Below are positions 7,839 through 45,203 of a DNA stretch of 64,000 bases, piece after piece. The translations under genes and the position numbers were made by a program. The stretch is from Nemertoderma westbladi (Eukaryota > Animalia > Xenacoelomorpha), in contig JAUCBJ010008088.1 in NCBI GenBank assembly GCA_032718475.1, positions 1 to 64,000 on the forward strand, written 5' to 3'. The first letter of the stretch is position 1. Each line of letters begins with the position of its first letter. The notes under the pieces were generated by a model. It did no database searches, was not told the origin of the DNA, and was given only the letters and a program-made list of their open reading frames with translations.

Positions 7839-7984
7839 GTAAAGTTAACGTGTTTGAGTCAATACTGTAGGCAGAGATAGAGGGAGTGGAAAGTGTGGCA
7901 AGTTGTGCATGTTTATCCAAACATATTTTCCGTATTTACTATTTCGGGATTAAGTAATTTATGTTGTTTATCTATGGTTTCCAG

Positions 7985-8155: not shown

Positions 8156-8352
8156 GTAAGTCGATACCGGTACCAGTATGCTATAATGTTAAAGTAAGTC
8201 GGATCCACTAAATAATTTAATAATTTATATTAACACACAATGTCCTGGAATATTGGGAAATTGGGGGGGGGGGGGGGGGGGGGGGTAAAGGACACTTTAT
8301 TCCCGGACATAGTTATTTGGTCGAACCTTTTTGTCATATTCTATTACCATAG

Positions 8353-15874: not shown

Positions 15875-17426
15875 GTAGGTGAAATCCTGAGAATATCATT
15901 GGAGCTTAATTACTTTTTGACAAATGTTTGGTTCTTTCCTTTGATGCGCCAAGTCAAAAATACTAGTTATTGAAATTTATTATTATAGTACTGTATATAA
16001 TAATTTTAATTATATTATTAGATAATAATTCATCAAAAGACGGCGGAAGTCAGGAGATTCATTTAACCCTTCGCGTACCAAAAATAAATTACATAAATTT
16101 TTCCTCAAAAATGACCAAGAAAAACATATATTATCGGACCAAGGTTTATTTTCTTTTTGTATCAGAGATATTTTATATAAAGAGTATAATCATATTATTA
16201 CTTATCCTACCCTAAAATTATCCTACCCGCCTTTAACCATTTTCGAAATTTTTAAATCTTTCATTTCAACCCCATGTGCTGCACACTGCGGCCATAATTT
16301 TTTGAATACAATCAACAAAATTAGTGGTTAAATTGAAATTAAATTACACAAATTATGTAATTTAAAATACCCTCAAAGCAATAGGAATCCCTTCAAGCAA
16401 TGTTAAATTAACTTTTCTAGACCAGATTGTCCTGCCCAACACGAATATGAACCCCATTTTTCTGCCCCTAATGGTTATAAGAAAGTTGTAAGATGTTTTA
16501 AGGGCACGTGTATGTCAATACATTGTACTGTACTATTAAGCTTATGTACCACTTCTGAGGAATTGGTTCAACAGAATGGCTTGAAATTTTTATGGGAATT
16601 TATTTCGCGTGTGTCTCAAACGTGGAACCACAAAATTAAAAAAAGATAATTTGGTCGCCAGAAATTTTCAAAATGAAAAAAGTCATTTTTTAAAATTGAA
16701 AAAAAACACGTATTTTGGCTCTTTTTTGAGATGAAACTTTTGCAATTTCTAATCTACATGTCCAAACGGTGGTTCCGCCTATAAAGGATTAGTAGAAGAA
16801 CATATACTGAAAATGTCATGCAATTTGGTCCAGTAGTTCCAAGAAACAGATACATGAGTAAATGATATAAACGAAAAATAAAATGTGAGGTTTGATCAAG
16901 AAATCGACCTACCGTTGCAAAATATTATTTCACATAATTAGAGGTTGAAGTCAAAATAGTTCATTTGGTATTAAAATATCGAATTTTATTTTTTTACTTT
17001 TTCTAGATCAGAATTTTTTGCTAATTCTGAAACTGTAAACGAAATTTTCATATCTATTTTAGTTTTGGAGTTATTTGATTTTTTGTAGACCTCACTCATT
17101 TTGAAATTATTATAAATAAGTGGCCAATTATTTGTAAGATTCAGTAACAGTATTACTTTTTCAAAATACTATAATTGTATTTGTCCTACAGGATAATTTT
17201 TGCTATGAGTTTTCCTGTTCAGTGATTTAATTTCAATTGTTACTTTCCACGGCTGACGGATCATAGACTGTCGATCAGTCTGTTTGTATGTCTGTCTGTG
17301 TGTCCGTTTGTCTGTCAAAAATTAGGGAATCATGATATCTAACAAAATGTTCTGCTTTCTCGGAAGGCGATTCCATTTCCAATGTCGATTTATGGGTTTG
17401 ACGCGATCCTGCTTGTCTGAATTCGT

Positions 17427-18616
17427 TGTAAAAGCTTTTGTGGGATAACTGATACGTTTGCCTTTGCTGGCCAGTTCCCCCCCGGTCGCTAGAATACTCT
17501 CAAAGGGATTTATAACTAAAATAGTGCAAGCTACCAGCTTATTGGCTGATGTGCTGTACGGAGATATCTGGGCTCAGTTTAATCGGCCAACTAGCTTAGA
17601 GAGGTTGCCTTAGCCTTGCTGTCCGTATCGGCCAATAGAATTTGAGTGGGCGTTGATTTCGACCTATCCCAGAGCTACTGAACTGAATTTCCTATCTCAC
17701 TGCTCATCCTCTGTGTTGAACGGGAGCTTCGGGGAATAAGGGTAGTTGGTATCCTCGTATAGTAGGTAGTCATATGATTCTTCATATGATTCTGTTGTTA
17801 TGTTCCCATTTTTCGCCATAACACCGGCTTTAGGGAATAACTCCAGTAAAACTGCTTAAATTATCGAAAGTATAACTGTTACCTTAACTAATCAATCTTA
17901 ACTTACTTAACTCACTATTAATCATATTGTTTGTACTGTTATTTACCGTCAGTTATTAATTGTATCTATTTGTTGATGGAAATATTGCTCTTTGGATAAT
18001 ACGGATAAATCACCCAAATTTCCCAATTTTCTTGATACACTACAGGTTAGAGAGACAGGCTATACATAACAATTGCGATTTATATTAATGTGGTGTGTAT
18101 TGAATCTAATGTTATTTAGCAGACCCTACATGAGTCAATTGCTGCTCTCTTTATGTGTGATCAAATTTACTGACGGTCGGCAGAATAGTGTGCATGATTG
18201 TGATTGGTAACAAAGTATTTCCTAAAGAATACGCCTTATACTTTAATCATAAGCGGTATCGTTGCGTTTAGTATAAGTCCTAGTTCTGTTTAAATAGATA
18301 GAGCGCCACGTCCTAAAGGAACTGTTAATATTTCCCGAAAGCCAATAATATCTGTCAGAGATTAATTATTAACGATCTATCGAATAATACAGTAGGTTTA
18401 CACTGCAACCTTACACTGCAATAATAAAATTTAAGCAGCCGAATTCAGCCTCCCGGGTGTAGATCCATCGGGTGAATGATCGCGCATGGGCTGACTTCGG
18501 GTAATGTTTTGTGTATTAGCATAAAATATTGTCGTATGCTAAAGGTGTTTTAATTAACTAAAAGACATATAAATTTTGGCAGGTTAAACTGCTAAAGGTC
18601 TTCAAAAGCGCGAACA
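17427..18616 (+). repeat. 5' LTR
   Basis: TGTAAAAGC...GCGCGAACA; CCAAT motifs at 17540-17640; AATAAA near 18423. Confidence 0.96.
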
Positions 18617-18685
18617 GTAACAGTTAACGATCTTATTGCAGTAGGCAATAAGGTTGCAAAATACCGTAGTGACCGGTAAACCTGA

Positions 18686-20740
18686 ACCGGTACTTCTGTA
18701 GGTCTGTAGGCCCAACTGTCCTAACCGGTACTGCTGTAGGTCCGTAGGTCCAACTGCCAGAACCGGTACTTCTGTAGGTCTGTAGGCCCAACTGTCCTAA
18801 CCGGTACTGCTGTATAAGTACATTAGTATTATTCGATTTTGATTATTGTATACCGGTAGGCTGTTTAAGAGATTAGGGAGTGTACACCCCTTGTTTCTTT
18901 TGGAGCTTACTTATTTCTGTCGGTTTTATTTCCTAGTAAGTTAATATTGAGCTGAAGACGTGTAAGTCTGCTCAGATTGTTCAAATAATTGTAGGCTGAA
19001 CTGCTGTCTGACTGTTGTTGGGTTTGGAGAGATTACGGTGTGTGTAGAGTTTGTCTGATAAAGTGCCATTAGTAAGTTGGGGCAGCCATATGCGGTAAGG
19101 TCAATCCCCTCTTAAAGAATAAGTCGTACTACCGTGTTAGAACGCATACTAACTAACAGTTTCAGAGTCTGCATATACTGTAGTTTATTTAGGCTTGATC
19201 GTAGTCTGCCAGTGTTTTGGCCTGTGTTTGTTTGTGTGGTCTGTTCAGGTACCGTAATAGTTATTACTCAAATATTTTGTAGGCTGGATTGTTGTCTAGC
19301 TATTCTTAGGTCTGAAGGGATTGCTGCGTGTGTAGAGTTGGTCTGATAAAGTGCCGTTAGTAAGTTGGGGCAGCCATATGCTGTAAGGTCAATCCCCTCT
19401 TAAAGAATAAGTCGTACTACCGTGTTAGAACGCATACTAACTAACTGTTTCAGAATCTGCACATACTGTAGTTTGTTTAGGCTTGATAGTAGTCTGCCAG
19501 CGTTTGGTTTGTATTCTGTTTGAGTATTCTGTACGGGTAGCGTAATATTTATTATTCAGAGTTTATGCGATTATTCGCAACATTCATGTCCCCAAGTTTA
19601 TTCCTACAGTAATTGTGTTTGTTACACATACCGTTATAGTTAAATTAACCCCGGTACTACACGGGCTGCTTGGCGTAGGTAAAGACTGGTGACTTTGTGC
19701 TTCGGTCACTCCAGCAGATGCCGTGGTTCTTTTAACTGTTCAAGTATATTTAACTGCTGATTATTTGTTATACCGGTACTTGTACCTAATTTAGGGTTTA
19801 GTGTACAGTGCTTTCCGAAGTAATTAGTGTGTAGGCAGTATATTTGTGTTGTAAAGTGGTTGATAGGCACATTCGTTAGCTCTATTAGCTTCTGGGTAGG
19901 AACAATCCGTGATACATAACGTAGTACCTATAGCGATACGGTTATAGGTCGTCAGGCGGTGGTATTTTCTTATCTGGACAGTACAATATATTTACTACTA
20001 CTTATTATTTCAAATACCGTAGTACCCTGTCCGTTGTAATAACCAGAATTCTAACCCTTTGTTAGGCTGGTTTGTAGACTTCCTGTAAAATTACCCTAAA
20101 AAAATTTCGTACGTAATATTTTGTTGTGTTTAATTAGAGAATTAATCTCACCAGTATAGTAAGTAATTTGTAGTATTAAGTAACTTAGGTAAATTAGAAT
20201 TATCAGTTTTTAGTGTCAAATAAATAGCACTTCACTGAGAGCGCACAGCTTCTGTGTAGTGACTCCCCCAGAAATAATAACATTTATTTCAAATATTGAC
20301 AAAAACCCATTTAAACGGGTATATAAATATTATAAATCAACTCAAACGATTTATAAATAGTAGGCCTGTCATACAACAACTAGGTCTCACTATCAGTTGG
20401 ACTACTGCTTAAATAACGGTAATAAAGTAAGTTAAAGTAACTAAGTAACCCTAAAATATTCAGGAATTCAATTATTCTAAAAATAATTGACATACCGGTA
20501 CTTGCCATAGGCTTATTATATTTATTTCTATAAATTTGAGCTGAAATCATACCGGTACTCTGTAATTAATTCTAGTTCATAATTATACTTATATACTATA
20601 AGTGTAAGCTGTATACCGGTATTCACTATAGGCCTACTATATATATATATATATTTGTGCTAAAATTATATACCGGTACTCTGTGACAAATCTAGTCTGT
20701 AATAATACTTATATATATTATAAGCATACCGGTATTCTAA
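18686..20740 (+). repeat. Tandem repeats in the long (2.2-kb) leader of the LTR element
   Basis: 38-bp units (accggtacttctgtagg...) at 18686-18815; ~288-bp duplication at about 18980-19560; ~90-bp ACCGGTA-containing units at 20490-20740. Confidence 0.75.
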
Positions 20741-20872
20741 TATATTGTATATATATCACGTTACACCAAGTAACGGTACCGGTAATAAATCGCTAGGCTT
20801 GCGGTCATACTGAATTACCAGACTTGCTTTAACTGAAGCTATAGTAGTAGACATTCAGCTGTATAGCTAAAC

Positions 20873-22039
20873 ATGTCTGACACTCAGCAAAACCTGTCAG
20901 ACAGTCTGATCGATACAACTATCTGTGACTCAGATAGGAGTGTGGAGCGATTAAGAAAGGAGTTCAGCTCACCTCCTACTGCAAAAAAGGTCATCCCTCC
21001 AGTAGTATCAGACCCTAGGCTAATCCACCATAGGTCTATCATAGGCACTCGGGCACAGGTCAAACGGAACCAAGAGGCAGCTGTCCTATCGCAGCAACAT
21101 CTTGGTCAAGAACCTACTTCCCAGCGATCCGATAGCTCCAGCAGTTCGGATACTGTAGAGCTGACCCCCGAACGCGGAGTGCAGATGGCTGCTACAGTCT
21201 ACTCGGACCCCCTTCTTACCCTTCCTGCTGCAGTGCTAACTACTATATTCATTGCGGTGGAGGAACATCAAGCCGACTGGGCGAGAAATAAGCGAGCGAC
21301 CCAAGATAATTATGCGGGATACGCCAGGGAAGAATTGACGTCTATTGTCGAGTCACAATGGAACTTTCCCGGACTCGGACTCCCGTTGGATCTGTCCGAG
21401 GCTACTTGGGAAGATATACACAGGATGGGAGTGGCTAAAGATACAATGGATCCAGCTGTTTGGAAGAGGTCGGCAGCAGGATATGTGCAGGGATTCTTCG
21501 GCTCCTTGGAGCGATTGGAAGAACAACTGTTTCGACAACTTCAAGGACCTCAAGAGCAGGAAGAGCTGCTATATCAAGTACGAGAAAGAACCCTACGCAT
21601 TCGACTAATCCTCTCAGCCTTTGAGGAAACTTCCAAAAGAAGACAGGACACGTCGCTGCAAGTTGCTGTCAAAACTTGGTTACATCGGGTAGGTCTCAAA
21701 GTACAGGAAACGGCCCAGTGGAAATCCCAGCTGGCTGAGAGATCACCCTATGAAGAACAAACTGATGTCACTCTTTCTCAAGCGGAAAGCGAAGAGACCG
21801 CCGAGAAACCGCGAACTAGAGACGCTATCGACATTTATTTGTCCGACTATCAGCGATTCCTAGGAGACGAAGAGTTGAGGAGACGGCTGTCTGGACTTTC
21901 CCCTAATAGTGAAGGAACCAAGCTTGTGTTGGACTCAATCGATGCCGAAATGTTAGCTGCAAACCAAGCTGAATGTGATGAAAAACTCCGCCTCACTAGA
22001 GTCCGAGAAGAACAAGTAAAGAAAGAAAGAAAGAACTGA
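20873..22039 (+). CDS. LTR element Gag N-terminal part (frameshifted relative to the downstream gag-protease ORF)
   Basis: 388-aa ATG-initiated ORF ending in an (AAAG)n run; the -1 frame is open from 22000 and continues into the gag-protease ORF. Confidence 0.8.
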   Translation: MSDTQQNLSDSLIDTTICDSDRSVERLRKEFSSPPTAKKVIPPVVSDPRLIHHRSIIGTRAQVKRNQEAAVLSQQHLGQEPTSQRSDSSSSSDTVELTPERGVQMAATVYSDPLLTLPAAVLTTIFIAVEEHQADWARNKRATQDNYAGYAREELTSIVESQWNFPGLGLPLDLSEATWEDIHRMGVAKDTMDPAVWKRSAAGYVQGFFGSLERLEEQLFRQLQGPQEQEELLYQVRERTLRIRLILSAFEETSKRRQDTSLQVAVKTWLHRVGLKVQETAQWKSQLAERSPYEEQTDVTLSQAESEETAEKPRTRDAIDIYLSDYQRFLGDEELRRRLSGLSPNSEGTKLVLDSIDAEMLAANQAECDEKLRLTRVREEQVKKERKN

Positions 22040-25000
22040 TAGAGAGAAGAAAGGTAGCAGCAGCAGCGGCGGCGGAAGCAGAAGCAGAAAGAAAAGAAGC
22101 AGAAGCCGAAAGAAAAGCAGCAGAAGCAGAAGCCGAAAGAAAGGCGGCAGAAGCAGAAGCAGAAAGAAAAGCGGCGGAAGCCGAAAGAAAGGCAACAGTG
22201 GCAGAAGCAGAACGGAGAGCGTCTGAGGAGACTATCCAACTAGAGTTGGAAAATCTGCAAGAGACGCAAGACAGTATAAATAAACAGTATACTGCTAATC
22301 AGATGCAGATGATGAGAAAATCTACTCCCAAGCGCCAGGGATACACATCCTCGGAGGAAGGCGATACTACCGATCCTGAAGGCGGAGGAAATAGATCTCA
22401 TCTAAGTAGGCGTAGAAAAACTTCTTACCGTCGCAAATTGCCTGATTTGCCCCCAGCTGTTAGAAGACAGCTAGCTAGCACAGACTTAAGTAGTATAGAA
22501 CCTACGGCCCAAAGTATTAAGGTCCAAAGACTCTCTACAATAGTTGATGAACCTGAGATAATTAGGCCTGTCGTTCCCAAAGTCACTTCTGTGTTAGAGA
22601 CCCCTGTACTTCCAGAGTTTAACTCTAAATTCCCTTTACATAGTACTACACTGCCTGTACCCGGTGGAACAGCCCAAGAGAATATCCCTGTCCAGATAGC
22701 AGAGAGAGAAATTAAAAATTTGTCTCCCGTCGTCCCGCGTCAGCCCGCTACTATGTTGGCGACTCCCGCTTCGGCGGTTGAGTGGGTGGAAGATGGACGG
22801 CGTGGGATGAATCTCCTGCTGGGACAGATGCAGGAGACTGTCCACCAACTTAAGGGAACAGTGAGGGAAAGTAGAGCAGAGTTGCAAGAAGTGCAGCAAA
22901 GTATCGCGCTAGAACGCGACAAATTAGTCAATATAAAAAAGGGCATACCAATACCCCCTGTAACATTGTGTCAACCTGTTAGGTCTGAAGTATTACATGC
23001 GCAAGGTGTGGAGCCTACACGCATCTATACTGCTAGTGAAGTTGAAACTCCTATAGCAAACCCTATTAAGGGTGATTATAGACCTGTTATTAATGATATT
23101 CCCTATAGACCTGATAATGATCCGAGAAATTTATATACCGATAAGTCGATATTAAATAACACGATGGCCCAAGAAAGCTTTACGCGTCAGATGGCTAGAA
23201 CAGAAGCCCGCCAAGCGGTCAAAGTGGGAGAGATCGTCAAATTCAATGGAGATGAGATGAAATGGTTACCTTTCAACGAATATTACAAAGATAGCATACA
23301 GAACTCTGTACTATCTAACGGAGAGAAGCTTAGATTCCTCATCAAGTGCTTGGAAGGACCTCCCAAGTTAATGGCGTTAAAGTTTATTGGACATCCAGAA
23401 GGATTAAGACAAGTTTGGGATACATTAAATATCAGGTATGGTAACAAGGATAACATAGCTAAGTATTTGTACGCAAAATTAGTAGCCCCCCGACACTTCC
23501 TTAGTAGTGGGATTATAGAGTTTTCCGATGAAATTCAAGAGATCTGTAGACAACTGGACTGGTTAGGTAAGTCGCACGAATATCAGAGTTCCATGGTTAT
23601 TGGAGCCGTAGTCTCTACTTTACCAAAGGGTGGAGTATGTACACGCTGGCACAAGAAAGTGTTGTACATGAATGAACAACAACGACGAAGTCCTACCATG
23701 GCTGATCTCATGTCCTTCTTAGATGGTGAGGTAAAACTACAACTCATCAAGCAGGCCAGAGAGAAAACATCGGAAAATAAGGTAAGTGAGAAACCCGTTT
23801 CTAGGAGAAGGATAATACCAGTGTGTTACACTGACGACGGCGAGAGCCAAGCTTCTCAAGAAGAGGACAGCGGGAAAGACACAGCAAAATCTTACTATGA
23901 CAACAAGACCTATAAAGACGTAAGTAAATACAAGTCTCGAATCAGTGACAGGAGAAAACAGGTAACAACAACTCCTCCTACGTCTCCTAAGAGAATTCAC
24001 GGAAGAAAGCCCGAAGAAAGAACGAGAGTGCATAACGTTACCCAAGGTAAGGTGAGTAACATCAAACCAAAATGTGCGCTGTGCGACGGGCCCCACCGTT
24101 TGAGTGCGTGTGCTGAATTTCTAAAGAAATCCCCTGTAGACAGACGTACAGTCCTGTGGAATAAGCGGTTATGCTATAATTGCCTCAGATCAGGACACCA
24201 ACGGCGAACCTGTTACTCCGACGTAAAGTGTGCAAAGTGTGGCGCGAAACATCACATCTTGTTACACAGTGAGTTCGAACGAGACAACCCGAGTCAGGTA
24301 AGTGAGCCCGAACTACATGTCCAATTCAGTGATGTGAACGACACTGACCAAGGTTCTGAGTGGGAAGGATTCTATACAGACGAATTCTCCGATGCCAACG
24401 AATCCTGTTATCTAATAAATACCACAGTGTATCGAGCACTTACGGATGAAAAGGACACTGACGAGTTTACTCCAACTCCTTTTGACAAACAACCATCTTG
24501 GAAAGTTCCAACTTCCAACATAGGAATAAGAGAATTTCCTGTAGTGCAAGTTCGAGTTCATGGTCCCAACAAGAGTTACATAGTGAACGCCCTACTTGAC
24601 TCCGGCAGCACAGGAACATTCATCGATCAAGAACTAGCCGAAGATATCTTTGCTGGACAACCCAAGTTCCGGACTAAATTGAATATGTCAGGAATTATGC
24701 AGGTTTGGAAATCTACCCTAACGGCAGATTACTATGTAGGTGTGTTGTCCACCCCCCAGGATAAGTTAGGAACACAAGGTATAAGGTCAGTAAAAATGGT
24801 GGCTATAAAGAACTTTGCTACTACTCAAGCAGACTTTTATAATTGGAACGAAGATGAGAGCATCCAACATCTTAAGATACCTCGATTCCAGACAGATTAT
24901 CCTGGAGTGCAAATACTCATCGGCCAAAACGCGCACGAGGCGCTCGAAACATTAGAGAAACGGCCTGCTCAACCACAGCCATTACAAACTTATGCGGTAA

Positions 25001-25503
25001 GAACTAGAGTAGGTTGGTACTTCACTGGCCCTTCCCGTAGAACTCTCAAAGAGAGATTACCTCAACAACAGGTATACCAAGTAAAGGAATGGGAAGTGGA
25101 GAGCAGTGATGTGGACGATCCAACTGAGGGAACACCATACTCCTCAGATAATGACGATATTAACTCCAATGTAGATCAATGGAGACATTGCCTTGGGACG
25201 ATTAATCCAGCCGACATCGCTTCCAGAGGAGCAACTCCTCAAGAACTGATAGATACTCCAGGCTGGTTAGGTGGATCCGACTCCTTAAGTAAAGAAGAAG
25301 AAGAATGGCCTCCTCATCTTACCACGGCAGAAATTAGACAGGCCAAGGGAGCGGAGAAAGTAACACAACAACTCAATCGCCCAGCTAGTCGTTTATGTTT
25401 ACTGGAAAGAGACCGAAAACTGTCCGAAAACTATGGAAGGCAAGATACTCTTCCTACGACTACTTCCCTAATCCGACAAATATCTAGGGACTCCATAACG
25501 TGA
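22000..25503 (+). CDS. BEL/Pao Gag + aspartic protease + RNase H C-terminal remnant (RT and integrase absent)
   Basis: DUF1759-like KFNGDEMKWLPF...EKLRFLIKCLEG...LNIRYGN; three BEL knuckles CALCDGPHRLSAC, CYNCLRSGHQRRTC, CAKCGAKHHILLH; protease ALLDSGS...ILIG...TRVGWYFTGP; then QWRHCLGTINPADIASRG...EEWP. No YxDD or integrase motifs. Confidence 0.92.
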   Translation, partial: SPRRTSKERKKELIERRKVAAAAAAEAEAERKEAEAERKAAEAEAERKAAEAEAERKAAEAERKATVAEAERRASEETIQLELENLQETQDSINKQYTANQMQMMRKSTPKRQGYTSSEEGDTTDPEGGGNRSHLSRRRKTSYRRKLPDLPPAVRRQLASTDLSSIEPTAQSIKVQRLSTIVDEPEIIRPVVPKVTSVLETPVLPEFNSKFPLHSTTLPVPGGTAQENIPVQIAEREIKNLSPVVPRQPATMLATPASAVEWVEDGRRGMNLLLGQMQETVHQLKGTVRESRAELQEVQQSIALERDKLVNIKKGIPIPPVTLCQPVRSEVLHAQGVEPTRIYTASEVETPIANPIKGDYRPVINDIPYRPDNDPRNLYTDKSILNNTMAQESFTRQMARTEARQAVKVGEIVKFNGDEMKWLPFNEYYKDSIQNSVLSNGEKLRFLIKCLEGPPKLMALKFIGHPEGLRQVWDTLNIRYGNKDNIAKYLYAKLVAPRHFLSSGIIEFSDEIQEICRQLDWLGKSHEYQSSMVIGAVVSTLPKGGVCTRWHKKVLYMNEQQRRSPTMADLMSFLDGEVKLQLIKQAREKTSENKVSEKPVSRRRIIPVCYTDDGESQASQEEDSGKDTAKSYYDNKTYKDVSKYKSRISDRRKQVTTTPPTSPKRIHGRKPEERTRVHNVTQGKVSNIKPKCALCDGPHRLSACAEFLKKSPVDRRTVLWNKRLCYNCLRSGHQRRTCYSDVKCAKCGAKHHILLHSEFERDNPSQVSEPELHVQFSDVNDTDQGSEWEGFYTDEFSDANESCYLINTTVYRALTDEKDTDEFTPTPFDKQPSWKVPTSNIGIREFPVVQVRVHGPNKSYIVNALLDSGSTGTFIDQELAEDIFAGQPKFRTKLNMSGIMQVWKSTLTADYYVGVLSTPQDKLGTQGIRSVKMVAIKNFATTQADFYNWNEDESIQHLKIPRFQTDYPGVQILIGQNAHEALETLEKRPAQPQPLQTYAVRTRVGWYFTGPSRRTLKERLPQQQVYQVKEWEVESSDVDDPTEGTPYSSDNDDINSNVDQWRHCLGTINPADIASRGATPQELIDTPGWLGGSDSLSKEEEEWPPHLTTAEIRQAKGAEKVTQQLNRPASRLCLLERDRKLSENYGRQDTLPTTTSLIRQISRDSIT

Positions 25504-27123
25504 TAGCATGTGGAGTGGGCGTGTGACTATATCATTTTATATTTGTTTTTATTTTATATTTATGTATGTATTATTATGTAATTTATTATAATCGTTTTCT
25601 TTAATTTTATTTAGTAGAATGTTATTTTAGAATATTTAGTAAATTAGTGCAATATATTAGTGTTTATTACGTATTTAATTACTTACAATATATTTAGTGC
25701 GACGGCAAGAAATAATTATTTTTCTCTTTCCTTACTGTCCGTATCATATTATAAATACGTGACTACAGTAAGATGAAATGTCCGTACTTCTTAAGGTACA
25801 ATAAAGCCACTACTATATTTAAGTATTATTGGTAGGCAGAGTATTAGGAATGCAAAGTTCAGATCCTCGTGTCTCGGCTAAACCAAGCTCTGGGTAGACC
25901 TTGGAAACGACTTGCCTCTTCACACTGACATTGCTTCGTGCGATATTGCTCTTCTACCTTATAACAAATAATACATATAGTAGCGTGATGTCCCTCTAAC
26001 AGTAGCGTAAATCGCAAATAAATCTGTTAAACTTTTTGACCATCTGTAATTCTAGTCGATTAAGATATCGTGGCACCCACCGATATACTTGAAAGACAAA
26101 TTCTAGAATCAGTGGTTAACGTCCCCAGACAAGTTCTGGAATAAATCGGTGCTCATCCTAAATATTAATTTAATATTTATTAAAATCTGTAAAATCCCGA
26201 TCCTTTAAAAATTCTAGTCAATTAAGATATCGCAGTATTTACCGATATTCTTAAAAGGACTATTTTATAGAATTAAGGATCCTAAGTCCCCAGATATGCT
26301 CTGGAATAAAATTTGTGTCAATTTAACATCAAATAATAAAATTCACGGGAATGAACTTAAATTCATATTCAAATGAATTTCATAAATTGTCATTTTGTGC
26401 AATTTATAACATTCCCAAAATTCCAGTAATTAATAGATCATGGGAGCGGAGATTCATATTGAGTGTACTAGAGTGTGAGAATCTCCAACATATAGTCAAT
26501 ATCCGATAAAATTTATAAAATCATGCATAAAGAGGATATTGACAATTAAAGAATTACTATTAAATAACATCCCAGATCTGTATGCATGAGAATTACCCTA
26601 ATTCTACCGCTAGTTTTCCATAATGTCACCATGGCAACACCCACGCTAGAATTAGAAGCAAGTTAAAGGAACAATAAAAAGCTTGCCCCATTGCGTAGCA
26701 TAAGAGTATACATAGCGCACTATTAGTATCCAAGGATACATAGTAATAACGTGACATTCTGGAAGACACTGACTAACGGACAAATGGCATGCATGTGTGC
26801 AGTACGTAATGATTGTATGGAATTTGTGCGTTTATAGGTGAATGTTACTACTAAAGTGTGTTTACAGTAGCTAATCGCAATTGTAAAGTAGCCCTAACTC
26901 TACCGAGATAACCTCAAGTGGATTCAAGCCTTTGGGACGGACAGTGGTGGGACTTGTGCCGGTTATCGTTGTCGTGCTGTTGCTACATGTTGGCGTAAAC
27001 ACTGCGACAACGGTACATCGGCGCTGAGAAACCCACTGTCCGGGGGCAAAGCCTAGTAGGCAGCGACGCCCGCTTGCCTAAAATATTAACTCATATTGAT
27101 ATTAATAAACTCAGATAGCAGAT

Positions 27124-30100
27124 ATGACGGAATTGATAGAAGATGACCTTGGTATTAGAGAGCGATATACTCTACCTTTACAAGCGTTTGTGGATAGCTT
27201 GATACGCGGTGAAGCCGATCCGACTATTACGGAGGACGATGGTCGTTATATCGAACCGCCGATGTCCCAGGAACAACTTACGCGTGAATCGGACTATAGA
27301 AAATTCACCGCTCGCTATACGAATCGTAATGGTACGTATATGAACTTCTTAACTACCGGCCATCCTACCGATTTACATGATACTGATGATGTAGACACCG
27401 AAAGGGAAATGGTTTTATTTAAATATCATGCCCAGCGGAATCGTAATGATAAACCGAGAATAGAACACGAGAACTCTATTCGCAACCTACTCGACAGAGA
27501 AAACGTTGAAGAACCCGATAAGCGTATCAATTTCAACGACTACTTGGAATTTTTGAGAGAAACCTATCTCAATATTGCCAGTCAACAGAACCTAGAGACT
27601 CGATATCCTCAAGGTATACATCACGATCCCATGGTAGAACTCAAACGACTCTATTTCACCATGATGTATCTTACCGCAGATCGTCCACTGCCTGTTGTCC
27701 CGGACAGCTTTGAACAAATGGAAGAGTATTGCAAAACTGGAGAACGATCACCCGCGTTTCCTCTGCAGGACGTACGTCTTTGGTATTATTGTGACTCATG
27801 TCCTAGACCTAACCAGCAAACGGAAAGACATAAACATCCGCGGAGACGTTGTGCTAAACACAGTTTTACGCGTTATACTTACGGGAGTTTCGAGCGAAAC
27901 CTGTTCGACGTATCACCTACGATCGCCCGTCTAAAACGATCGCTAAATAAACCCATGATCAGAGTTCCGGAATACTCGGTCAGGCCTCCCCATTTCCCCG
28001 TGAGACCTCAAACTCTTGATCCTAACAGTATCACTGATCCTCCCGAGTTATATTCACTGTTCAAAGATTTGGTGTTACCCGAGCAGTTAATCGGTGGGGT
28101 TCCAGCGGTAGGTTCGTTAGATATTCGACCATCCTATTTAACCGGATTGGGACGTGGGCATCTAACATCGCCATTTAATCCTTACAATCGGCCAGGATTA
28201 ACTCCGATACAACCTGCCACGGAAGTCGAGGAGAGTGTCATCAGAAACGCTCTAGACGCCATCCGACAGAAAATCGGAAAGGGAACCCAGGATTTTCTAG
28301 AGAAACGTAAATTACAGCAGCAGGTCCAATCGGTTAAAGAGTTAGCCTTGCCGCAGTTTGATAGAGAAATCCAAAACCTCGAAGAGGACATCGAGCTTGG
28401 ACGTACGTATTCTCTACAGGAGTTTCTAGAAGAACGCTTACAGAAACAAGCGGAGGAAAATCAACTAGAGGAGACACATACGGAAATGGAAATGGATGAG
28501 AGAGAAGAAGCCGCTTTAGCCCAACCCGAAGCTCAGATACTCATAACATATCTCTACTCTAAAACCGTCCGTCATCCATCGATGGTTCCGCATTTCGGAG
28601 ACAAACTTTTTGCAAAGATACAACCCCAACCGGTTGATATCAGCATAAGATCGCAAAATCTTATCGCTGACGCTCCTATGTTACAGCGTCCGCCAATCGA
28701 GGCCGCTCGAGTTGACGGTATACTCGTTGAACCTCCGGACAATCGAGCGGATCTTGTCCGTCGTATGGTACACGATGTCAACATACGCGCTAGACCTTTA
28801 CAGAACTCTTTTTATGGAATTAAAGACCACCCTTATTACGTTAATCTGACTCAATATTATATGGTAAAACCAGAAGATCCGACACATAATTTAAAGTTTC
28901 TACCACTAATAAATCCTCTGGACATTGTCGAACTCGAACAATTGCAAAAACATCTGGATCAGTTAGTAAAGGTAAACTCATTTCGAAAACCATATAACGT
29001 TTCTCGAATAGAGAAGGATACAGAACCTCCTTATAATCTCGATGGATTTATTAAAACTCGATTAGTCCATTGGAATCTAGACGTATTATTCGAGGAGGAG
29101 AAAATACAAAGATATGGAAACGTGGAGACGTATACCACTCGATACATGAAGTATAGTGATCTCCCTGACGCTAATCAATGCGCCACCTTGTGGCATCCGG
29201 TAGGGATGACCCTCGAGAACGCCACCAAAGAGTGGAATGAAACTCTTAATATCATTGAGATGTATGGCGTTGTTACTTACGATAACGAAGGTAGCGTTCC
29301 AATCGGAGAATTAGGAACTACGCGCATGATACACATACGCGGATTAGCTGGTTCCACTCACGTGTTTACGCGAGCGTGTTCCGACGTGATCGATTATTCC
29401 TTTGAAATTCTCACCGAAACGCAAAAGAATCTCCGACATGGACAATTCGAACTCGCGCAGCGTTACGTCATTGACACCGAACGCAAACCGACCATGGGTA
29501 TCGATGGATCGATGTTACCCCAGCCCGTTCTCGAAATGTTATTCAACGAAAGAATCATTAAAATCGGCTCAGCTGTTTACGGAGATCTCCAAAACGACTT
29601 TCGGAATATGGAGAATATCCCCTATCCTTTCGTGGATACTCAGCTGATAGCTCCTTGGGCCGAAGGCCGAGGTTTCTTTCGCACCATGTATGCTAATGCG
29701 TCTAGCAACATTACAAAGGTGCAACGAACTTCCATCGGACATCTTGCTTTTCAGGAATACGGATGGAATTTCAAGGTCGGAAACCCCATCAACTATCAAC
29801 AAGTCTACGGAGACCATTATTCTCGATTATACTTTGACGGACCGTTGACCGCACCTGGCGCCGTGTATAGCTTCATGAGTGTTCCACTCCGCCCCTCCTT
29901 AGCTATCTACACGATCTTCGAAAACACCGCACTTTCCGGTTGGCTAGCCGATGTGTGCAGTCGTACTATACGCGCCCATCCATTAATCCTTGGGACCAAA
30001 CTCGCTAAGCTAGATGAACATAATAAATTCATCCGCTTTGAATGTTTCCGACGATTTTTAACCCCGTTTCGCAACGTGGATAGCCAATTCAAAGACCGCG

Positions 30101-31383
30101 CTTTGACCAAGCTCAGCTTAAGAGACTCGGCTGCGGAGAAGTTAGATAGCGCTGGATTCGCTATTTTCAAAGACATTTGTATAATAAACCTGCACTCCTC
30201 GGTTATCCAAAGACCTCGGATCCCCACAGGTTATTCTGTCGTAGAAATTCAGACGATAGGTCCACTTGAGGAGACGGCCATGCCTACCTCAACTATACAA
30301 GGGGAAGACGAACCCATATGTTTAGAATCTGAAGAGATTCAGCCCCCCACGTCTCGGAGTAGCGATAGCAACTATATATTGGAATGGTATCAAGGTCCAC
30401 AGTGTCTTACTGCGTATGATTATCGCCACGCCAATTATGTTTCTCGACAACGTTGTCGGCTGTGCGCATCGAGAGACCATATTACGTCTATGGACACCAA
30501 CGATCTCTGTTCCTATTTCCACGAACAACCGTCGATGGAAATCTATTGTGCATATTGTCGGCTTAATAATTTGCACATTTTTGCTGTCTGCCCCCAATTT
30601 ATGACTCAATGCCATCATTGTCAATTAAAAGGACACGCCAGCTTTGATTGTCCCTTTAATCATGATTTAGAGAGCGTAGATGAAATGATTGTACTACGTT
30701 ATATCAGAGCTTGGGAAGCGAACGCTGATTTACATTGTGATTCGCGCCATCGCTATTACCCTGGACGCGCTTACGAAGGAGTTTATGCGTTCCATCCTTA
30801 TTTGTTTGCATCCGTCGAGCAAAAATCACGCCTATCAAGTTATGAACTATTGAAGCGCGTTGGAGAATGTATTTCAACTAAATATGTACGCAAATTCCTC
30901 AGGAGCATTAATCCGAGTGACATCCATTCTTACAACTTAATAAACTTTATCCGTCAAGACCCTGCCTATGGAGACTTATTTGTCAACTCACACCCCGAGT
31001 TACAGGAAGTATATCGACGGCCTTACGAGTATCGAGCCCGCGAACGCGAGTTGGAAAGAACCATTAAACCAAGGAAGTTTCTAACTACCTATGGTCCACC
31101 CACGGCCCTCGTGCAGACCACTCGTACAGGACCCGTAAGAGCGGCTGTCTTGAAACGAGCTCTCAAAGCCGTTAGACCCCTCTCCCTGGACGTTGATGTC
31201 AATCAACCCGGTACTTCGACCGGCGGATATACCGATCGCAATCCCATACCTTCTGATGCAATCATATTGCACCCTTCACCCAGGAGTTATAGCCCTCCTC
31301 GTAAAGTGGCTCGCCCCAAAGAGAAAAGGACTCTTGCTAGCTTTAAAAAACTGCGTAAACGCCATCCGCGCAAGAAAGACTAA
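27124..31383 (+). CDS. 1419-aa accessory protein: DEDDy 3'-5' exonuclease-like domain plus 3 CCHC zinc knuckles
   Basis: ExoI VVTYDNEG; ExoII LPQPVLEMLFNERIIKIGSAVYGDL; FVDTQ; SIGHLA; ExoIII-like PLRPSLAIYTIFE; knuckles CRLCASRDH..C, CAYCRLNNLHIFAVC, CHHCQLKGHASFDC; basic C-terminus KKLRKRHPRKKD. The ORF is certain; the domain call is by motif recognition. Confidence 0.8.
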   Translation: MTELIEDDLGIRERYTLPLQAFVDSLIRGEADPTITEDDGRYIEPPMSQEQLTRESDYRKFTARYTNRNGTYMNFLTTGHPTDLHDTDDVDTEREMVLFKYHAQRNRNDKPRIEHENSIRNLLDRENVEEPDKRINFNDYLEFLRETYLNIASQQNLETRYPQGIHHDPMVELKRLYFTMMYLTADRPLPVVPDSFEQMEEYCKTGERSPAFPLQDVRLWYYCDSCPRPNQQTERHKHPRRRCAKHSFTRYTYGSFERNLFDVSPTIARLKRSLNKPMIRVPEYSVRPPHFPVRPQTLDPNSITDPPELYSLFKDLVLPEQLIGGVPAVGSLDIRPSYLTGLGRGHLTSPFNPYNRPGLTPIQPATEVEESVIRNALDAIRQKIGKGTQDFLEKRKLQQQVQSVKELALPQFDREIQNLEEDIELGRTYSLQEFLEERLQKQAEENQLEETHTEMEMDEREEAALAQPEAQILITYLYSKTVRHPSMVPHFGDKLFAKIQPQPVDISIRSQNLIADAPMLQRPPIEAARVDGILVEPPDNRADLVRRMVHDVNIRARPLQNSFYGIKDHPYYVNLTQYYMVKPEDPTHNLKFLPLINPLDIVELEQLQKHLDQLVKVNSFRKPYNVSRIEKDTEPPYNLDGFIKTRLVHWNLDVLFEEEKIQRYGNVETYTTRYMKYSDLPDANQCATLWHPVGMTLENATKEWNETLNIIEMYGVVTYDNEGSVPIGELGTTRMIHIRGLAGSTHVFTRACSDVIDYSFEILTETQKNLRHGQFELAQRYVIDTERKPTMGIDGSMLPQPVLEMLFNERIIKIGSAVYGDLQNDFRNMENIPYPFVDTQLIAPWAEGRGFFRTMYANASSNITKVQRTSIGHLAFQEYGWNFKVGNPINYQQVYGDHYSRLYFDGPLTAPGAVYSFMSVPLRPSLAIYTIFENTALSGWLADVCSRTIRAHPLILGTKLAKLDEHNKFIRFECFRRFLTPFRNVDSQFKDRALTKLSLRDSAAEKLDSAGFAIFKDICIINLHSSVIQRPRIPTGYSVVEIQTIGPLEETAMPTSTIQGEDEPICLESEEIQPPTSRSSDSNYILEWYQGPQCLTAYDYRHANYVSRQRCRLCASRDHITSMDTNDLCSYFHEQPSMEIYCAYCRLNNLHIFAVCPQFMTQCHHCQLKGHASFDCPFNHDLESVDEMIVLRYIRAWEANADLHCDSRHRYYPGRAYEGVYAFHPYLFASVEQKSRLSSYELLKRVGECISTKYVRKFLRSINPSDIHSYNLINFIRQDPAYGDLFVNSHPELQEVYRRPYEYRARERELERTIKPRKFLTTYGPPTALVQTTRTGPVRAAVLKRALKAVRPLSLDVDVNQPGTSTGGYTDRNPIPSDAIILHPSPRSYSPPRKVARPKEKRTLASFKKLRKRHPRKKD

Positions 31384-31461
31384 CTGTTTAGAGTATTTTT
31401 ATATTTTAGAAACTGTGATTTTGTATATTTTATAGACTTAAATCCCATTTTCTGGGAGCGG

Positions 31462-32651
31462 TGTAAAAGCTTTTGTGGGATAACTGATACGTTTGCCTTT
31501 GCTGGCCAGTTCCCCCCCGGTCGCTAGAATACTCTCAAAGGGATTTATAACTAAAATAGTGCAAGCTACCAGCTTATTGGCTGATGTGCTGTACGGAGAT
31601 ATCTGGGCTCAGTTTAATCGGCCAACTAGCTTAGAGAGGTTGCCTTAGCCTTGCTGTCCGTATCGGCCAATAGAATTTGAGTGGGCGTTGATTTCGACCT
31701 ATCCCAGAGCTACTGAACTGAATTTCCTATCTCACTGCTCATCCTCTGTGTTGAACGGGAGCTTCGGGGAATAAGGGTAGTTGGTATCCTCATATAGTAG
31801 GTAGTCATATGATTCTTCATATGATTCTGTTGTTATGTTCCCATTTTTCGCCATAACACCGGCTTTAGGGAATAACTCCAGTAAAACTGCTTAAATTATC
31901 GAAAGTATAACTGTTACCTTAACTAATCAATCTTAACTTACTTAACTCACTATTAATCATATTGTTTGTACTGTTATTTACCGTCAGTTATTAATTGTAT
32001 CTATTTGTTGATGGAAATATTGCTCTTTGGATAATACGGATAAATCACCCAAATTTCCCAATTTTCTTGATACACTACAGGTTAGAGAGACAGGCTATAC
32101 ATAACAATTGCGATTTATATTAATGTGGTGTGTATTGAATCTAATGTTATTTAGCAGACCCTACATGAGTCAATTGCTGCTCTCTTTATGTGTGATCAAA
32201 TTTACTGACGGTCGGCAGAATAGTGTGCATGATTGTGATTGGTAACAAAGTATTTCCTAAAGAATACGCCTTATACTTTAATCATAAGCGGTATCGTTGC
32301 GTTTAGTATAAGTCCTAGTTCTGTTTAAATAGATAGAGCGCCACGTCCTAAAGGAACTGTTAATATTTCCCGAAAGCCAATAATATCTGTCAGAGATTAA
32401 TTATTAACGATCTATCGAATAATACAGTAGGTTTACACTGCAACCTTACACTGCAATAATAAAATTTAAGCAGCCGAATTCAGCCTCCCGGGTGTAGATC
32501 CATCGGGTGAATGATCGCGCATGGGCTGACTTCGGGTAATGTTTTGTGTATTAGCATAAAATATTGTCGTATGCTAAAGGTGTTTTAATTAACTAAAAGA
32601 CATATAAATTTTGGCAGGTTAAACTGCTAAAGGTCTTCAAAAGCGCGAACA
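31462..32651 (+). repeat. 3' LTR
   Basis: Same length as the 5' LTR; one substitution seen (G17757 vs A31792). Confidence 0.96.
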
Positions 32652-32965
32652 TTCGTGTTTGTCAGTCTGTCTGTCTGTCTGTGTGTCGGTTTGTCTGTCA
32701 AAAATTATGGAAACATGAAATCTAACAAAATGTTTTGCTTTTGGGTGAAATGAAATCACCGACCAAGAAAATCCCATAATTGTTTGTTAATTTGAGATAT
32801 TTCTCAATTTTGACAGACAAGCAGACAGAAAGACCGACAGACAGACAGACGTACAAACATTAAATAATCAATCAAAAGTAAAAATAGATATCGGAAATGA
32901 AGTCACCGACCAAGAAAACCCCATAAATAAATTTGTTTGTTAATTTGATTTAGTTCTCAATTTTT

Positions 32966-32998
<33 letters not shown>

Positions 32999-35632
32999 AC
33001 GTCAAGATTTCTTCAAACTGAAAAAGTAAATTGTAACTGTAATTACCACCCAGTGACATTTTAAATGTTATCACCACTCAGAAAAACCCCATAACACTAA
33101 TTTTGAATAGTTTGTGCGCTTCTTAAATTTTAACAGACAGACAGACATACCAAAAACAGACAGACTGACTGACATGCAAACAATCGTCTAGAATCGGTAA
33201 ATAGTGAAAACCGACATCGTATTTGAAATCATCGGCAAATAAAAACCCAATAGCAAAAAAATGTAGGTGTTGGTGCTTTATTTATTTATTTGTTACATTT
33301 TTGACAGACAAACAGACAAGTATTCAGACAAACAGACAGAGTGACCTCCAATAGAAATAACAATTAAAAAATTGTCGCCTAAGGTCCATTCACTGATGTG
33401 TATCAGAATTCTGACGTATATACCTAATTTTTTACAAGTCTGCTTTGAAATATCGTAAAAGTTTTCATTTGAAAATCCCCCCAATTACAGAAAATTGGCG
33501 GGAACGTTTGAAACTCTCATAACTTGAAAGGCGTTTTTCTCAAAACTTTGTTAAAATTTGGTCATAAGACTACTAATTTTCAAAACTCAATATCTCAGCA
33601 ACACTTTATCGGATTTGAAATCTGTTTTCAGTGTTCGATTCAGCATAAAAATGTGTATTTGAATCAATAAAAAAACACAAAATTATTTTTTGTAACCGTA
33701 GGTCGGTTTCTTGATCAAACCTAACAAATTCTGAGATAAAGCCATTTAAAGTTTTCAAACCTTCCCACCATTTTTTGTTAAATGGAGGGATGATTCAAAC
33801 TATATTCAAAAAATAAGAATAAATAATCCAAAAATAGTACTTCTTAACTAAAATTTTCTATATGGGGGTTTGCGTGATTGCATTTCCGATATCAGTTTTA
33901 ACGTTTTATGAATTCAGACTGTCAGTTTAGAAAATCTCTAATTTGTTTAGAAAACCAAAATAATTTGCCCAATGACGAATTTGAAAGATTAATTTTGAAA
34001 GTTAGGCCATGCATTACTTCCTGTATTGCTTTGTTTTCTACTTTATTCAACAATACGGTATTGTACTGGTAAGTCGTATGTCATAAGTCAAAATAAATTA
34101 TGGAACACATTGGTTTAAAATGGAGCGCTTCCACTGGTATGTCATAAGTCGTTTGTTACGATTCATGAGTCGAAAGTGAATAAAGTGATTATGTCACATG
34201 TTCCATCTTTTGACATACGACTCATAAGTTATATCCGGCAAGAGGCCTGTGATTGGTTACTTTGGGTAGCAGCAAGCCAGAAAATATTGTACAGCAATTT
34301 ATTGTGTTCCATTAAATGTTAGGCGCAACTTAAATTTTTTAAGAAAAGACTTATTTATGACTTCCCCAGTATAGAGCCCGGGAGGTACTGTATATGCCTA
34401 CTTTTCACATCAACAGACTCAGACAAAATCTGAAAGCGATTTATAACATTCGACTCATGAGTTACCAGTGCCAGAGCGAGGGCCTACGTAATCTTAAATA
34501 TCATTGAAATATTAAACTACAGTAATAAAGACCTACTACCCTATGTAATGCAGCTTTGGTGAATTAATGCCATTTTTATTGGGAAGGAATATTCCACATG
34601 ATTGGGGTGTTGGGACAGTAAAATAAGTATCAAATTATAAGACTGTAAATTATGGGAATGTCAGTGAAACACTCGTAGACTGTAACACAGTCGATGTAGA
34701 TTTACTTAGAAATAAACAATACCACGAGAAATGAGGCCGAGTTTATTCGATATTATAGAAGTTGGTACAAATGGAGCTGGAGGAGATGAATCAGATTTAG
34801 AGGATTAAGTATTCGATTCTGGTGAATGAACGAACAATAAGGAACAAACAACATTAATAATAAATTAAAATGGTTAATCTTAAATTTTGATTTACAGGTG
34901 TTTTTTTTATTTCAAACGCTCTAGTAAAGCTTATGTTTTTCAATTTGTTGTTGCAATATTTAATTTTAGAAATATTTCTAAACAAGTTGAAAAAATTTAG
35001 AAATCACTATTTTTATTTATAAATTTCACTAACATATTTAGAAAAAAAAACCCTGACTGACAGACAGACAGGCTAAAAGACAGACAGCGAGACAGAAAGA
35101 CATGCAAGCAGGCAGACAGAACGACAGACAATCTATAAAATACATGAAACATTAAAATCGACATTAGAAATTCGATCACTAAACAGGAAAAATGTTGGAC
35201 ATTCTTTTTTTTGACAGACAAAACCGACTGAAAGGCAGACAGACAGCTATAACTCGAGACCTAAAATAGATCTCGCTATCTCGTTTTCAGTTTTGAAATC
35301 GCCATTAAATAAAAAAAAAAATTTATTTTTTTATCACAGACACGTGCGAAAAACATAAAGGCGGCACCCTGCCGCCCTGGGGGTCAGAATAATTTAAGTA
35401 TAGGCGAAACTCTGTCGCCCTTGGGGTTGAGTTATAACTATATAAAGGCGGCATACTACTGCATCACTTATGAGCATGATCCTGAATTATTTAGAATGAA
35501 AAAGGCGGCAGTGTGCCGCCTTTTTTTAGTGTTGGTACGCAAAGGATTAAAGAATTTCGGAAATTTCTTTAAGACTGCGTGAAATAGATAAATCCTCATA
35601 TGGGTCTCACACACGTGCTCCATTTTTCTCTC

Positions 35633-43637: not shown

Positions 43638-44160
43638 TACTTCGTGACCCGCCCCCACTCGTATTTGGCTAGGTAAACACTTTACCCTCACAAAATACAA
43701 TAAAAAATATTTTACAAAATTTCATATAATTTGTTATGTTTTCTATAATTGTAATTGAAAGTTTTTTTTTTTAATTAGATTCAATAATTGTTGATAAAAA
43801 TGACGGACATATTTATATTATATTAGATAATAAATATAATTAGATCGGTACATATTGAAGTAAAATTAAATAGTTGGGATGAATAATAAATAATACAATA
43901 TTGAGATTCCAGAATAATTTACCAAAAAATTATTGCCAACAATAAATATTACCATAGAAGTTCACTACGGCATCAACAACTACATGTAATTCGATTTAAA
44001 TAAACTATAAATATAATAATTAAGTTTGCAGATCATTATGTATTGCAATAAATATTTACATAATTGGTGTGCGGTTATTAAACGAACGGTAGTGAGTACA
44101 AATAAGGATGCGAGGGATTATAACATTGTAAAGTACTTTGCAACAAGAGTATGTATATAG

Positions 44161-45203
44161 TAGGGTAGGTCGATTTTTACTTTTTTTGGATATCTAGATT
44201 TTCTCATTGATAAAAAGTGGCCTTGGGTCCTAAAACTTTGTAGAAACAAAATTTTAACTCCTAAAAATTATGTTTGACCCCTGCACTGGACGTCGTCCAG
44301 TTCCCGCCCTAGCCGCTAGTGAGTCATTTTCCCAATTATTGTGATGATCAACTTCTAGTATTCCTACCGCATTGATATTATGCTCATTAGAACCGCAATG
44401 ACCGATTTAGTTGGTGTAGACACCTTCAAAACAAGCATAGAGCGAGTAGTTTTTGAGATATTGCAGAATATGTGAAGTCCGGTACAAGTCAACATTAGCG
44501 CCTTGATGCGGTATTGACAAATACACTAAAAATGATACTTTTAATTATCTCAAGGCATCCACAATTTACACATAACTGCAGTGATCAATTTAGGGGATGT
44601 TGAAACTCTAATAATATGAGTTCAGTGATTAGTTCTCGAGTTATTGTACAAAACGTCTGGACTGAGTCAGCTCAATATAAGGTCATTAATTGGTGGACCT
44701 AACCTTGACATTTTGTACAATAACTCGAAAACTAATCACTCAATTAATATTTTTAGAGTGTCAACATCCCCTAAATTGATCATTGCAGTTATGTGTAAAT
44801 TGTGGATGCCTTGAGATAATTAGAAGTATCATTTTTAGTGTATTTGTCAATACCGCATCAAGGCGCTAATGTTGACTTGTACCGGACTTCACATATTCTG
44901 CAATATCTCAAAAACTACTCGCTCTATGCTTGTTTTGAAGGTGTTTACACCAACTAAATCGGTCATTGCGGTTCTAATGAGCATAATATCAATGCGGTAG
45001 GAATACTAGAAGTTGATCATCACAATAATTGGGAAAATGACTCACTAGCGGCTAGGGCGGGAACTGGACGACGTCCAGTGCAGGGGTCAAACATGATTTT
45101 TAGGAGTTAAAATTTCGTTTCTACAAAGTTTTAGGACCCAAGGCCACTTTTTATCAATGAGAAAATCTAGATATCCAAAAAAAGTAAAAATCGACCTACC
45201 CTA
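44161..45203. mobile_element. hAT-type foldback element (near-perfect ~495-bp inverted arms)
   Basis: Termini TAGGGTAGGTCGA...TCGACCTACCCTA; 8-bp TSD GTATATAG (44153-44160, 45204-45211); short central spacer at ~44655-44709. Confidence 0.9.

Follow-up and report, generated by a model that had tools for sequence, protein, structure and literature searches.

A predicted DEDDy exonuclease gene in the env position of a young BEL/Pao-type element of Nemertoderma westbladi

In bdelloid rotifers, the LTR elements Juno and Vesta carry an ORF3 for a DEDDy exonuclease, which they have in common with Terminons, according to the excerpted account of these elements (PMC5408684). The BEL/Pao elements (Belpaoviridae) have LTRs of 0.2-1.2 kb and a total length of 4.2-10 kb, and their 18-nt primer site is complementary to tRNA-Arg or tRNA-Gly (PMC8742986). 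In Tf1/sushi elements, according to excerpts of three papers, the primer-binding position has roughly 10-11 nt that pair with a stretch inside the LTR (PMC7175516, PMC4600332, PMC6317226). Egalitarian, in the excerpted text of a further study, keeps its tetrad though RNA binding does not need it (10.1101/2025.08.03.668247). We analysed a window of 64,000 nt from Nemertoderma westbladi (contig JAUCBJ010008088.1, positions 1-64,000, forward strand), in which a BEL/Pao-derived element carries a third gene with a predicted DEDDy exonuclease domain (Table 1).

The element is 15.2 kb long and is flanked on both sides by a 5-bp target-site duplication. Its two LTRs show 1 mismatch in 1190 bp; the insertion is thus very young. 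The DUF1759 match in the gag-protease frame lies above the Pfam cut-off (E 2e-13), and we take this domain, the triple gag knuckle and the 5-bp duplication to be BEL/Pao traits. Short stubs after the protease, which Pfam did not support, resemble the end of a BEL RNase H and integrase in their motifs. The initial annotation had described a loss of RT and integrase, and this holds: Pfam found no RT or integrase core in the gag-protease frame, and there were no further frames of at least 70 aa at 25400-27200 or of at least 80 aa at 18617-20800. Since pol consists of the protease only, without an RT or integrase match, the element is filed here as BEL/Pao-derived and non-autonomous and is not counted as a full BEL/Pao member. 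The gag is split across two frames at about 22000-22039, a feature absent from the initial annotation.

Table 1. Features of the element and its third ORF, in window coordinates
Feature	Position	Strand	Basis
5' LTR, 1190 bp, TG..CA, TSD TTCGT before it	17427..18616	+	LTR comparison
10-nt LTR segment, candidate self-primer, complementary to bases directly after 5' LTR	17873..17882	+	
Primer-binding-site position, complementary to 17873-17882	18617..18626	+	
First gag-side frame, 390 aa stop to stop, no Pfam match	20867..22039	+	
Gag-protease frame, 1167 aa stop to stop	22000..25503	+	ORF list and Pfam
DUF1759 in gag-protease frame	~23242-23628	+	Pfam
Triple Cys/His knuckle in gag-protease frame	~24070-24270	+	
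Aspartic protease in gag-protease frame	~24544-24648	+	
Third ORF, 1419 aa, intact	27124..31383	+	ORF list
Predicted DEDDy-type 3'-5' exonuclease domain, aa ~705-945	29236..29958	+	Sequence/profile matches
Three Cys/His zinc knuckles, common to P0001 and P0002	30454..30651	+	Sequence comparison
Basic C-terminal tail, putative NLS-like, aa 1408-1419	31345..31380	+	
Purine-rich tract GGGAGCGG, PPT candidate, adjoining 3' LTR upstream	31454..31461	+	
3' LTR, 1190 bp, TG..CA, TSD TTCGT after it	31462..32651	+	LTR comparison

The third ORF occupies the env position, between the gag-protease frame and the 3' LTR, and is intronless and without an internal stop, as first annotated. Several lines of evidence, each weak but in agreement with the others, suggest a DEDDy exonuclease in it, the assignment already made from motifs in the initial annotation, and each of these motifs was found in its place (TYDNEG 29275, LPQPVL.. 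29515, FVDTQ 29629, SIGHLA 29731 and PLRPSLAIYTIFE 29884). Alignment to an RNase D places the tetrad and the Tyr at D720, E722, D821, Y929 and E933. In a four-way alignment of the third ORF with two distant homologues (P0001 and P0002) and with the RNase D-like ORF at locus L001, the ExoI DxE (D720, E722) and the ExoII D (D821) align in order. ExoIII reads Y929xxxE933; the Glu is also present in P0001, and P0002 has the Asp of the canonical YxxxD. Alignment A1 set ExoIII one helix earlier, with Ser in place of the acid, whereas BLAST, alignments A2 and A3 and the four-way alignment favour the E933 register and so the YxxxE reading proposed before. An insertion of about 25 residues lies within the predicted domain. 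Since an acid is present at each of the four positions, with a Glu at the fourth that P0001 also has, we infer that metal binding would be retained.

Among 1.84 billion representatives, two homologues were found at E<=0.001 (P0001, 7e-7; P0002, 2e-4), both with exonuclease, spacer and three knuckles. A profile of the third ORF with these two (A3) gave three matches at E<=10 against 177,635 PDB sequences, all of them DEDDy: Egalitarian (E 0.019 and 0.39) and EXD2 (E 0.22). The NCBIfam RNase D match (E 0.0014-0.0022) was far under the family cut-off. In the Atlas, PF01612 was present in 25/30 matches, and in the first match to P0002 (0.92), 100% of members have PF01612 and 61% zf-CCHC. From 347 candidate metagenome stretches came one matching locus (E 4e-5), whose ORF is read as a bacterial RNase D from its sequence. 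Profile and language-model matches agree on a predicted RNase H-like fold, each profile match being weak alone. A Pfam match to the exonuclease domain, sought as first suggested, did not appear; Pfam gave only a weak zf-CCHC_3 for the third ORF and its parts, and an HRDC match was also absent from this ORF. The AlphaFold models, likewise suggested at the outset, had mean pLDDT of 31 and 34, too low to show a fold. Single-sequence PDB searches returned chance matches only, an exact-match search of the protein collection contained none of three window proteins, and neither phage tblastn nor locus scans of viral contigs and of prokaryote genomes found a match. Word-based searches found no homologue among 2506, 1011 and 3863 candidates; these are weak blanks, because the search of 3863 candidates also missed P0001 and P0002.

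Outside the nuclease, the three annotated knuckles are present, with spacings Cx2Cx4Hx9C (aa 1111-1129, atypical), Cx2Cx5Hx4C (aa 1142-1156) and Cx2Cx4Hx4C (aa 1163-1176), and this region matches retroviral nucleocapsid structures among PDB sequences (best E 0.002). The N-terminal Cys/His motif (aa 223-246) and the basic tail, which P0001 likewise has, were also recovered, and a coiled coil at aa ~375-460 was recognised by eye only. Comparison of the N-terminal ~560 aa covered Pfam, NCBIfam and PDB. The third ORF has no membrane helix, as its highest 19-residue hydropathy is only 1.37, and its N-terminus, read from the sequence, is acidic and without a signal-peptide-like stretch. An env identity was rejected for lack of both features, in agreement with the initial annotation.

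Further copies were sought, as had been proposed, and the third-ORF gene was found on many diverged contigs in four public runs (thousands of contigs, four studies). Among the 40 exonuclease-domain differences listed of 149, 32 were synonymous against 12.3 expected, a crude ratio of about 0.11, and none of those listed was an indel; judging from this excess and the lack of listed indels, the domain is under purifying selection among copies. The earlier argument for selection, that the ORF had stayed open while RT and integrase were lost, does not hold by itself, given how recent the insertion is; selection itself stands on the synonymous excess. Against it, only 4 of the 10 third-ORF differences listed in the whole-element comparison were synonymous, and most of the 10 are sites where nearly all contigs depart from the window copy. 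The diverged contigs could come from autonomous relatives. Run X5 contains a contig of depth 2918 in which 27486 is joined to 30302 and the nuclease is missing. There are therefore copies that lack the nuclease domain, perhaps in abundance, as would be expected if it acts in trans or is dispensable.

Based on these findings, we tentatively propose, at a little below an even chance, that this is a young multi-copy BEL/Pao-type element whose conserved third gene, for a predicted exonuclease with knuckles, likely acts on the element's own RNA. The protein, with its three zinc knuckles, would likely bind this RNA, and the predicted exonuclease would likely trim or protect RNA 3' ends during replication. 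The message of the third gene may be spliced or arise from an internal promoter, and an autonomous relative would mobilise the element in trans. Action on the element's own RNA would account for a helper-dependent family keeping this 4.3-kb gene.

One candidate substrate would be a self-primer that arises through pairing of the RNA 5' end with the primer-binding position. A complementarity of at least 10 nt was reached by 17/10000 simulated LTRs. For an RNA start at 17870-17873 the pairing probability is 0.87-1.0, and with the whole LTR folded it is 0. In a search by pattern, no TGG-type tRNA primer site was seen within 60 nt past the 5' LTR, and no tRNA gene was found within the 64-kb window. 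It is possible, from these sequence features, that a BEL/Pao-type element shows a Tf1-like self-priming layout. We consider it quite unlikely, in turn, that an undescribed BEL/Pao lineage self-primes from the RNA 5' end rather than from a tRNA and that the exonuclease-knuckle protein, of a wider mobile-element family with P0001 and P0002, makes or trims the primer, a role in cis that would explain selection without RT or integrase.

The third-ORF protein could instead counter silencing by trimming, degrading or sequestering the piRNAs or siRNAs of the host, with an effect in trans on the whole family. Related folds act in small-RNA pathways (Exd1; mut-7 is named in the excerpts of PMC5408684), and a benefit common to all copies would permit the nuclease-less derivative of run X5. 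If the gene acted in trans alone, however, it should erode in a helper-dependent family, yet selection here is strong, unless it comes from autonomous relatives; we regard this explanation as somewhat unlikely. The exonuclease domain might also be catalytically weak or dead and work as an adaptor that binds RNA for its export, transport or packaging, in the manner of Egalitarian, which is the best PDB profile match. The Glu as fourth acid, the insertion within the domain, the large N-terminal half with its likely coiled coil and the basic tail would agree with this. We nevertheless think it unlikely: the acids at the four positions are still in place, as is the Tyr, and P0002 has YxxxD and P0001 YxxxE, which suggests metal-site constraint.

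Action on DNA in the manner of WRN or EXD2, either at cDNA ends or to proofread reverse transcripts, is very unlikely in our view. EXD2 is among the three PDB profile matches, and DEDDy enzymes can use single-stranded DNA (PMC5408684, in excerpt), but RNA is indicated by the knuckles of nucleocapsid type and by the matches to RNase D and Egalitarian, and the element has no RT of its own. The lack of introns would suit a host-gene retrocopy that was captured recently and evolves neutrally. This is extremely improbable, since the synonymous excess among diverged copies, thousands of contigs from four studies with no indel among the differences listed, largely refutes it, and no close relative appears among the named proteins searched.

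The cargo concept is less new than the initial annotation held, because DEDDy third ORFs have been published for rotifer LTR elements (PMC5408684, in excerpt); what stands is that our literature search, with Repbase/Dfam outside its reach, found no BEL/Pao element with such an ORF. In the literature found, nuclease cargo in the env slot was confined to rotifer elements and, with the predicted nuclease here, would extend to a second LTR superfamily. Since the present case differs in domain layout, is clearly under purifying selection and includes derivatives without the nuclease, such cargo may have been recruited repeatedly. Its many natural copies would offer a family in which the role of the nuclease is readable from sequence and testable in vitro, and possible self-priming would set the element apart from standard accounts of BEL/Pao in a second respect.

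Besides the DUF1759 gag, the element has in common with BEL/Pao an aspartic protease, a 1.19-kb LTR and a purine tract (PMC8742986 and excerpts of PMC3118150). Unlike BEL/Pao (PMC8742986), it exceeds 4.2-10 kb, lacks an RT or integrase core, has a third gene that is not env-like and, in place of a tRNA-Arg/Gly site, shows a self-complementary 10-mer at the primer position. This 10-mer recalls Tf1/sushi, a layout that the excerpted papers report in Ty3/gypsy and some plant copia elements, whereas ours is BEL/Pao-type (PMC7175516, PMC4600332, PMC6317226). The predicted domain shares with the Egalitarian EXO domain, EXD2 and RNase D the ExoI DxE, the ExoII D and, in the favoured register, an ExoIII Tyr followed at the fourth residue by an acid. 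It differs from them in the knuckles after the domain, the Glu as ExoIII acid and the lack of an HRDC match, and its similarity to Egalitarian and EXD2 is remote (PDB E 0.02-0.4). A close parallel is that of Juno and Vesta, whose ORF3 was compared by published description, from the excerpts of PMC5408684: both have a separate third ORF in the env position without a membrane segment, young LTRs and a DEDDy 3'-5' exonuclease (here predicted) with one Asp replaced by Glu. By the same account, Juno and Vesta are not BEL/Pao and have a complete pol, the changed position is the third in their motif (DEED) and the fourth here (DEDE), and their ORF3 is described as free of coiled coils, whereas ours combines a ~700-aa N-terminal part with three knuckles.

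Sequence reading bears out much of the initial annotation of the element: its third open reading frame (ORF3), in the env position, is intact and stop-free over 1419 codons, and the reported loss of reverse transcriptase (RT) and integrase holds, since the cores of both are absent from every frame of the element. An env identity of ORF3, which that annotation also rejected, was ruled out by a maximum 19-residue hydropathy of 1.37 and an acidic N-terminus. The element is 15.2 kb long and is flanked by a 5-bp target duplication (TTCGT); its LTRs differ from each other at a single position, so the insertion is very young. Upstream of ORF3, DUF1759 scored over the Pfam cut-off (E 2e-13) and the aspartic protease under it (E 0.002). 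The two upstream frames overlap by a frame change within a GAAA-rich tract (the gag split), which may be damage of this copy or a family feature or programmed shift. The second frame ends in two short stretches (pol stubs), which we take to be the ends of a BEL RNase H and a BEL integrase; Pfam confirmed neither stub. The element may lie within an intron or downstream of a glutamate receptor-like gene, whose exons indicate that the host is probably an animal.

Coordinates of the element, its parts and its surroundings in the window
Feature	Position	Remarks
Exons (+)	~4000-8200	presumably an ionotropic glutamate receptor gene, by motifs
PPT-like 8-mer GGGAGCGG, outside element	13611	
PPT-like 8-mer GGGAGCGG, inside element	25347, 26442, 31454	one copy between the two pol stubs
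GACA-rich dispersed repeats	17278-17358, 32656-33350	both orientations, surround element
5' LTR	17427-18616	1190 bp, TG..CA termini
3' LTR	31462-32651	1190 bp, TG..CA termini
Short tandem duplications	18681-19558, 26048-26310	38 bp x3.4, 288 bp x2, ~162 bp x2; within long untranslated stretches of the element
Upstream frame 1	20867-22039	overlaps frame 2
Gag split	22000-22039	
Upstream frame 2	22000-25503	DUF1759, triple Cys/His knuckle, aspartic protease
ORF3 (+)	27124-31383	1419 aa
Inverted repeat	44154-45210	504 bp, 97% complementary, arms 49 nt apart; MITE or fold-back element
Large tandem arrays	48020-51712, 55081-56731, 62004-63944	units 30, 42 and 37 bp

The putative nuclease domain of ORF3 very probably has the DEDDy fold proposed for it, judging from several mutually agreeing comparisons, although it was missed by Pfam and by single-sequence PDB searches, and two structure predictions reached a mean pLDDT of only 31.0 and 33.8. 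NCBIfam gave RNase D at E 0.0014-0.0022, far short of the family cut-off; in the Atlas, PF01612-bearing clusters made up 25 of 30 matches (up to 0.92), a lead given the mere 153-158 shared features. With aa 561-1260 as query, 2 proteins were retrieved from 1.84 billion representatives, P0001 (648 aa, E 7e-7) and P0002 (575 aa, E 2e-4), each aligning to ORF3 in the exonuclease-like region and in the knuckle region and having the same domain order (exonuclease-like domain, spacer, three knuckles). The top Atlas match of P0002 (0.92, 194 shared features) has members with PF01612 (100%) and zf-CCHC (61%). P0001 and P0002-P0006 are unnamed exonuclease and triple-knuckle proteins of 575-648 aa; the ENA contigs that carry them reach about 9-11 kb, and they are possibly part of other mobile elements. 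When a profile of the ORF3, P0001 and P0002 domains (A3) was compared with 177,635 PDB sequences, all 3 matches at E<=10 were DEDDy proteins: Egalitarian (E 0.019 and 0.39) and EXD2 (E 0.22). Of 347 stretches from a metagenome scan, 1 was confirmed (E 4e-5); it lies within an ORF that we take, from reading its sequence, to be a bacterial RNase D (profile comparison 78.7%). In a four-way alignment, D720, E722, D821, Y929 and E933 fall on the ExoI-III positions of this RNase D-like ORF; the ExoIII acid is Glu in P0001, as in ORF3, and Asp in P0002. This fits the proposed YxxxE, but another alignment set the register 13 residues earlier, with Ser at the acid position, leaving ExoIII uncertain.

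ORF3 was present wholly or partly in six listed sequencing runs from four studies, and the 4 of 7 listed runs compared all gave contigs over 20800-31460 (79,643, 20,853, 546 and 869), mostly 90-99% alike and covering all 30 bins. These contigs are not whole copies, and some of the more divergent sequences may come from autonomous relatives instead. Among the best-supported 40 of 149 differences in the nuclease domain (29245-29950), 32 were synonymous, where changes of those kinds would be expected to give 12.3 (binomial p 2e-10; the crude ratio is about 0.11), and none was a stop, a catalytic-residue change or an indel. The claimed selection on ORF3 is thus supported within this domain; a neutral retrocopy, the reading opposed to it, seems very improbable. 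However, among the best 40 of 1988 differences over the whole element, 36 lay in reading frames; in ORF3 only 4 of 10 were synonymous, which counts against selection, and in the gag frames 13 of 26 were. At most of these sites nearly all contigs disagree with the window copy, so its private changes are included. At 25367, between the pol stubs, differences occur in contigs from each of the four runs, a weak hint that the window copy is not alone in lacking integrase. Contigs skipping 27486-30302, the entire nuclease (run X5, depth 2918), and 28870-31224 (run X1) are joined across the domain, and internally deleted, nuclease-less derivatives therefore exist.

We tentatively favor, at somewhat under even odds, a mechanism inferred at every step: the knuckles, which match retroviral nucleocapsid structures (E 0.002-0.004), would bind element RNA; the protein would trim or protect RNA 3' ends, mainly of the RNA encoding it; and an autonomous relative would supply RT and integrase. 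A counter-silencing role is possible but unlikely. A non-catalytic, Egalitarian-like adaptor (10.1101/2025.08.03.668247, as far as its available text goes) we consider less likely still. A DNA nuclease appears doubtful.

As described in the accessible portion of PMC5408684, the rotifer LTR elements Juno and Vesta and the Terminons carry DEDDy third ORFs (motif DEED, activity not demonstrated there), as parts of PMC6431247 and PMC6338049 restate. We found no published BEL/Pao element with DEDD cargo, in a literature search partly weakened by the keyword "bel pao" probably differing from the printed form. The word "exonuclease" is absent from the main text of PMC3118150 and PMC13524379, whose supplements list BEL elements.

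The primer-binding position also departs from the known pattern. BEL/Pao elements have a tRNA-Arg or -Gly site (PMC8742986, ICTV profile), whereas the window element has no tRNA-type TGG within 60 nt downstream of the 5' LTR; instead, its first 10 nt past the LTR (18617-18626), taken as their reverse complement, match LTR positions 17873-17882 at every base, a length of self-complementarity reached in 17 of 10,000 simulated LTRs. Pairing probability was 0.87-1.0 for an RNA start at 17870-17873, and no pairing occurred with the whole LTR folded. Self-priming of a BEL/Pao-type element is thus a lead that depends on the RNA start site. Self-priming is treated in the accessible parts of PMC4600332 and PMC6317226, and the 10-nt layout resembles the 11-nt pairing given for Tf1, a known self-priming LTR element, in the portion available of PMC7175516.
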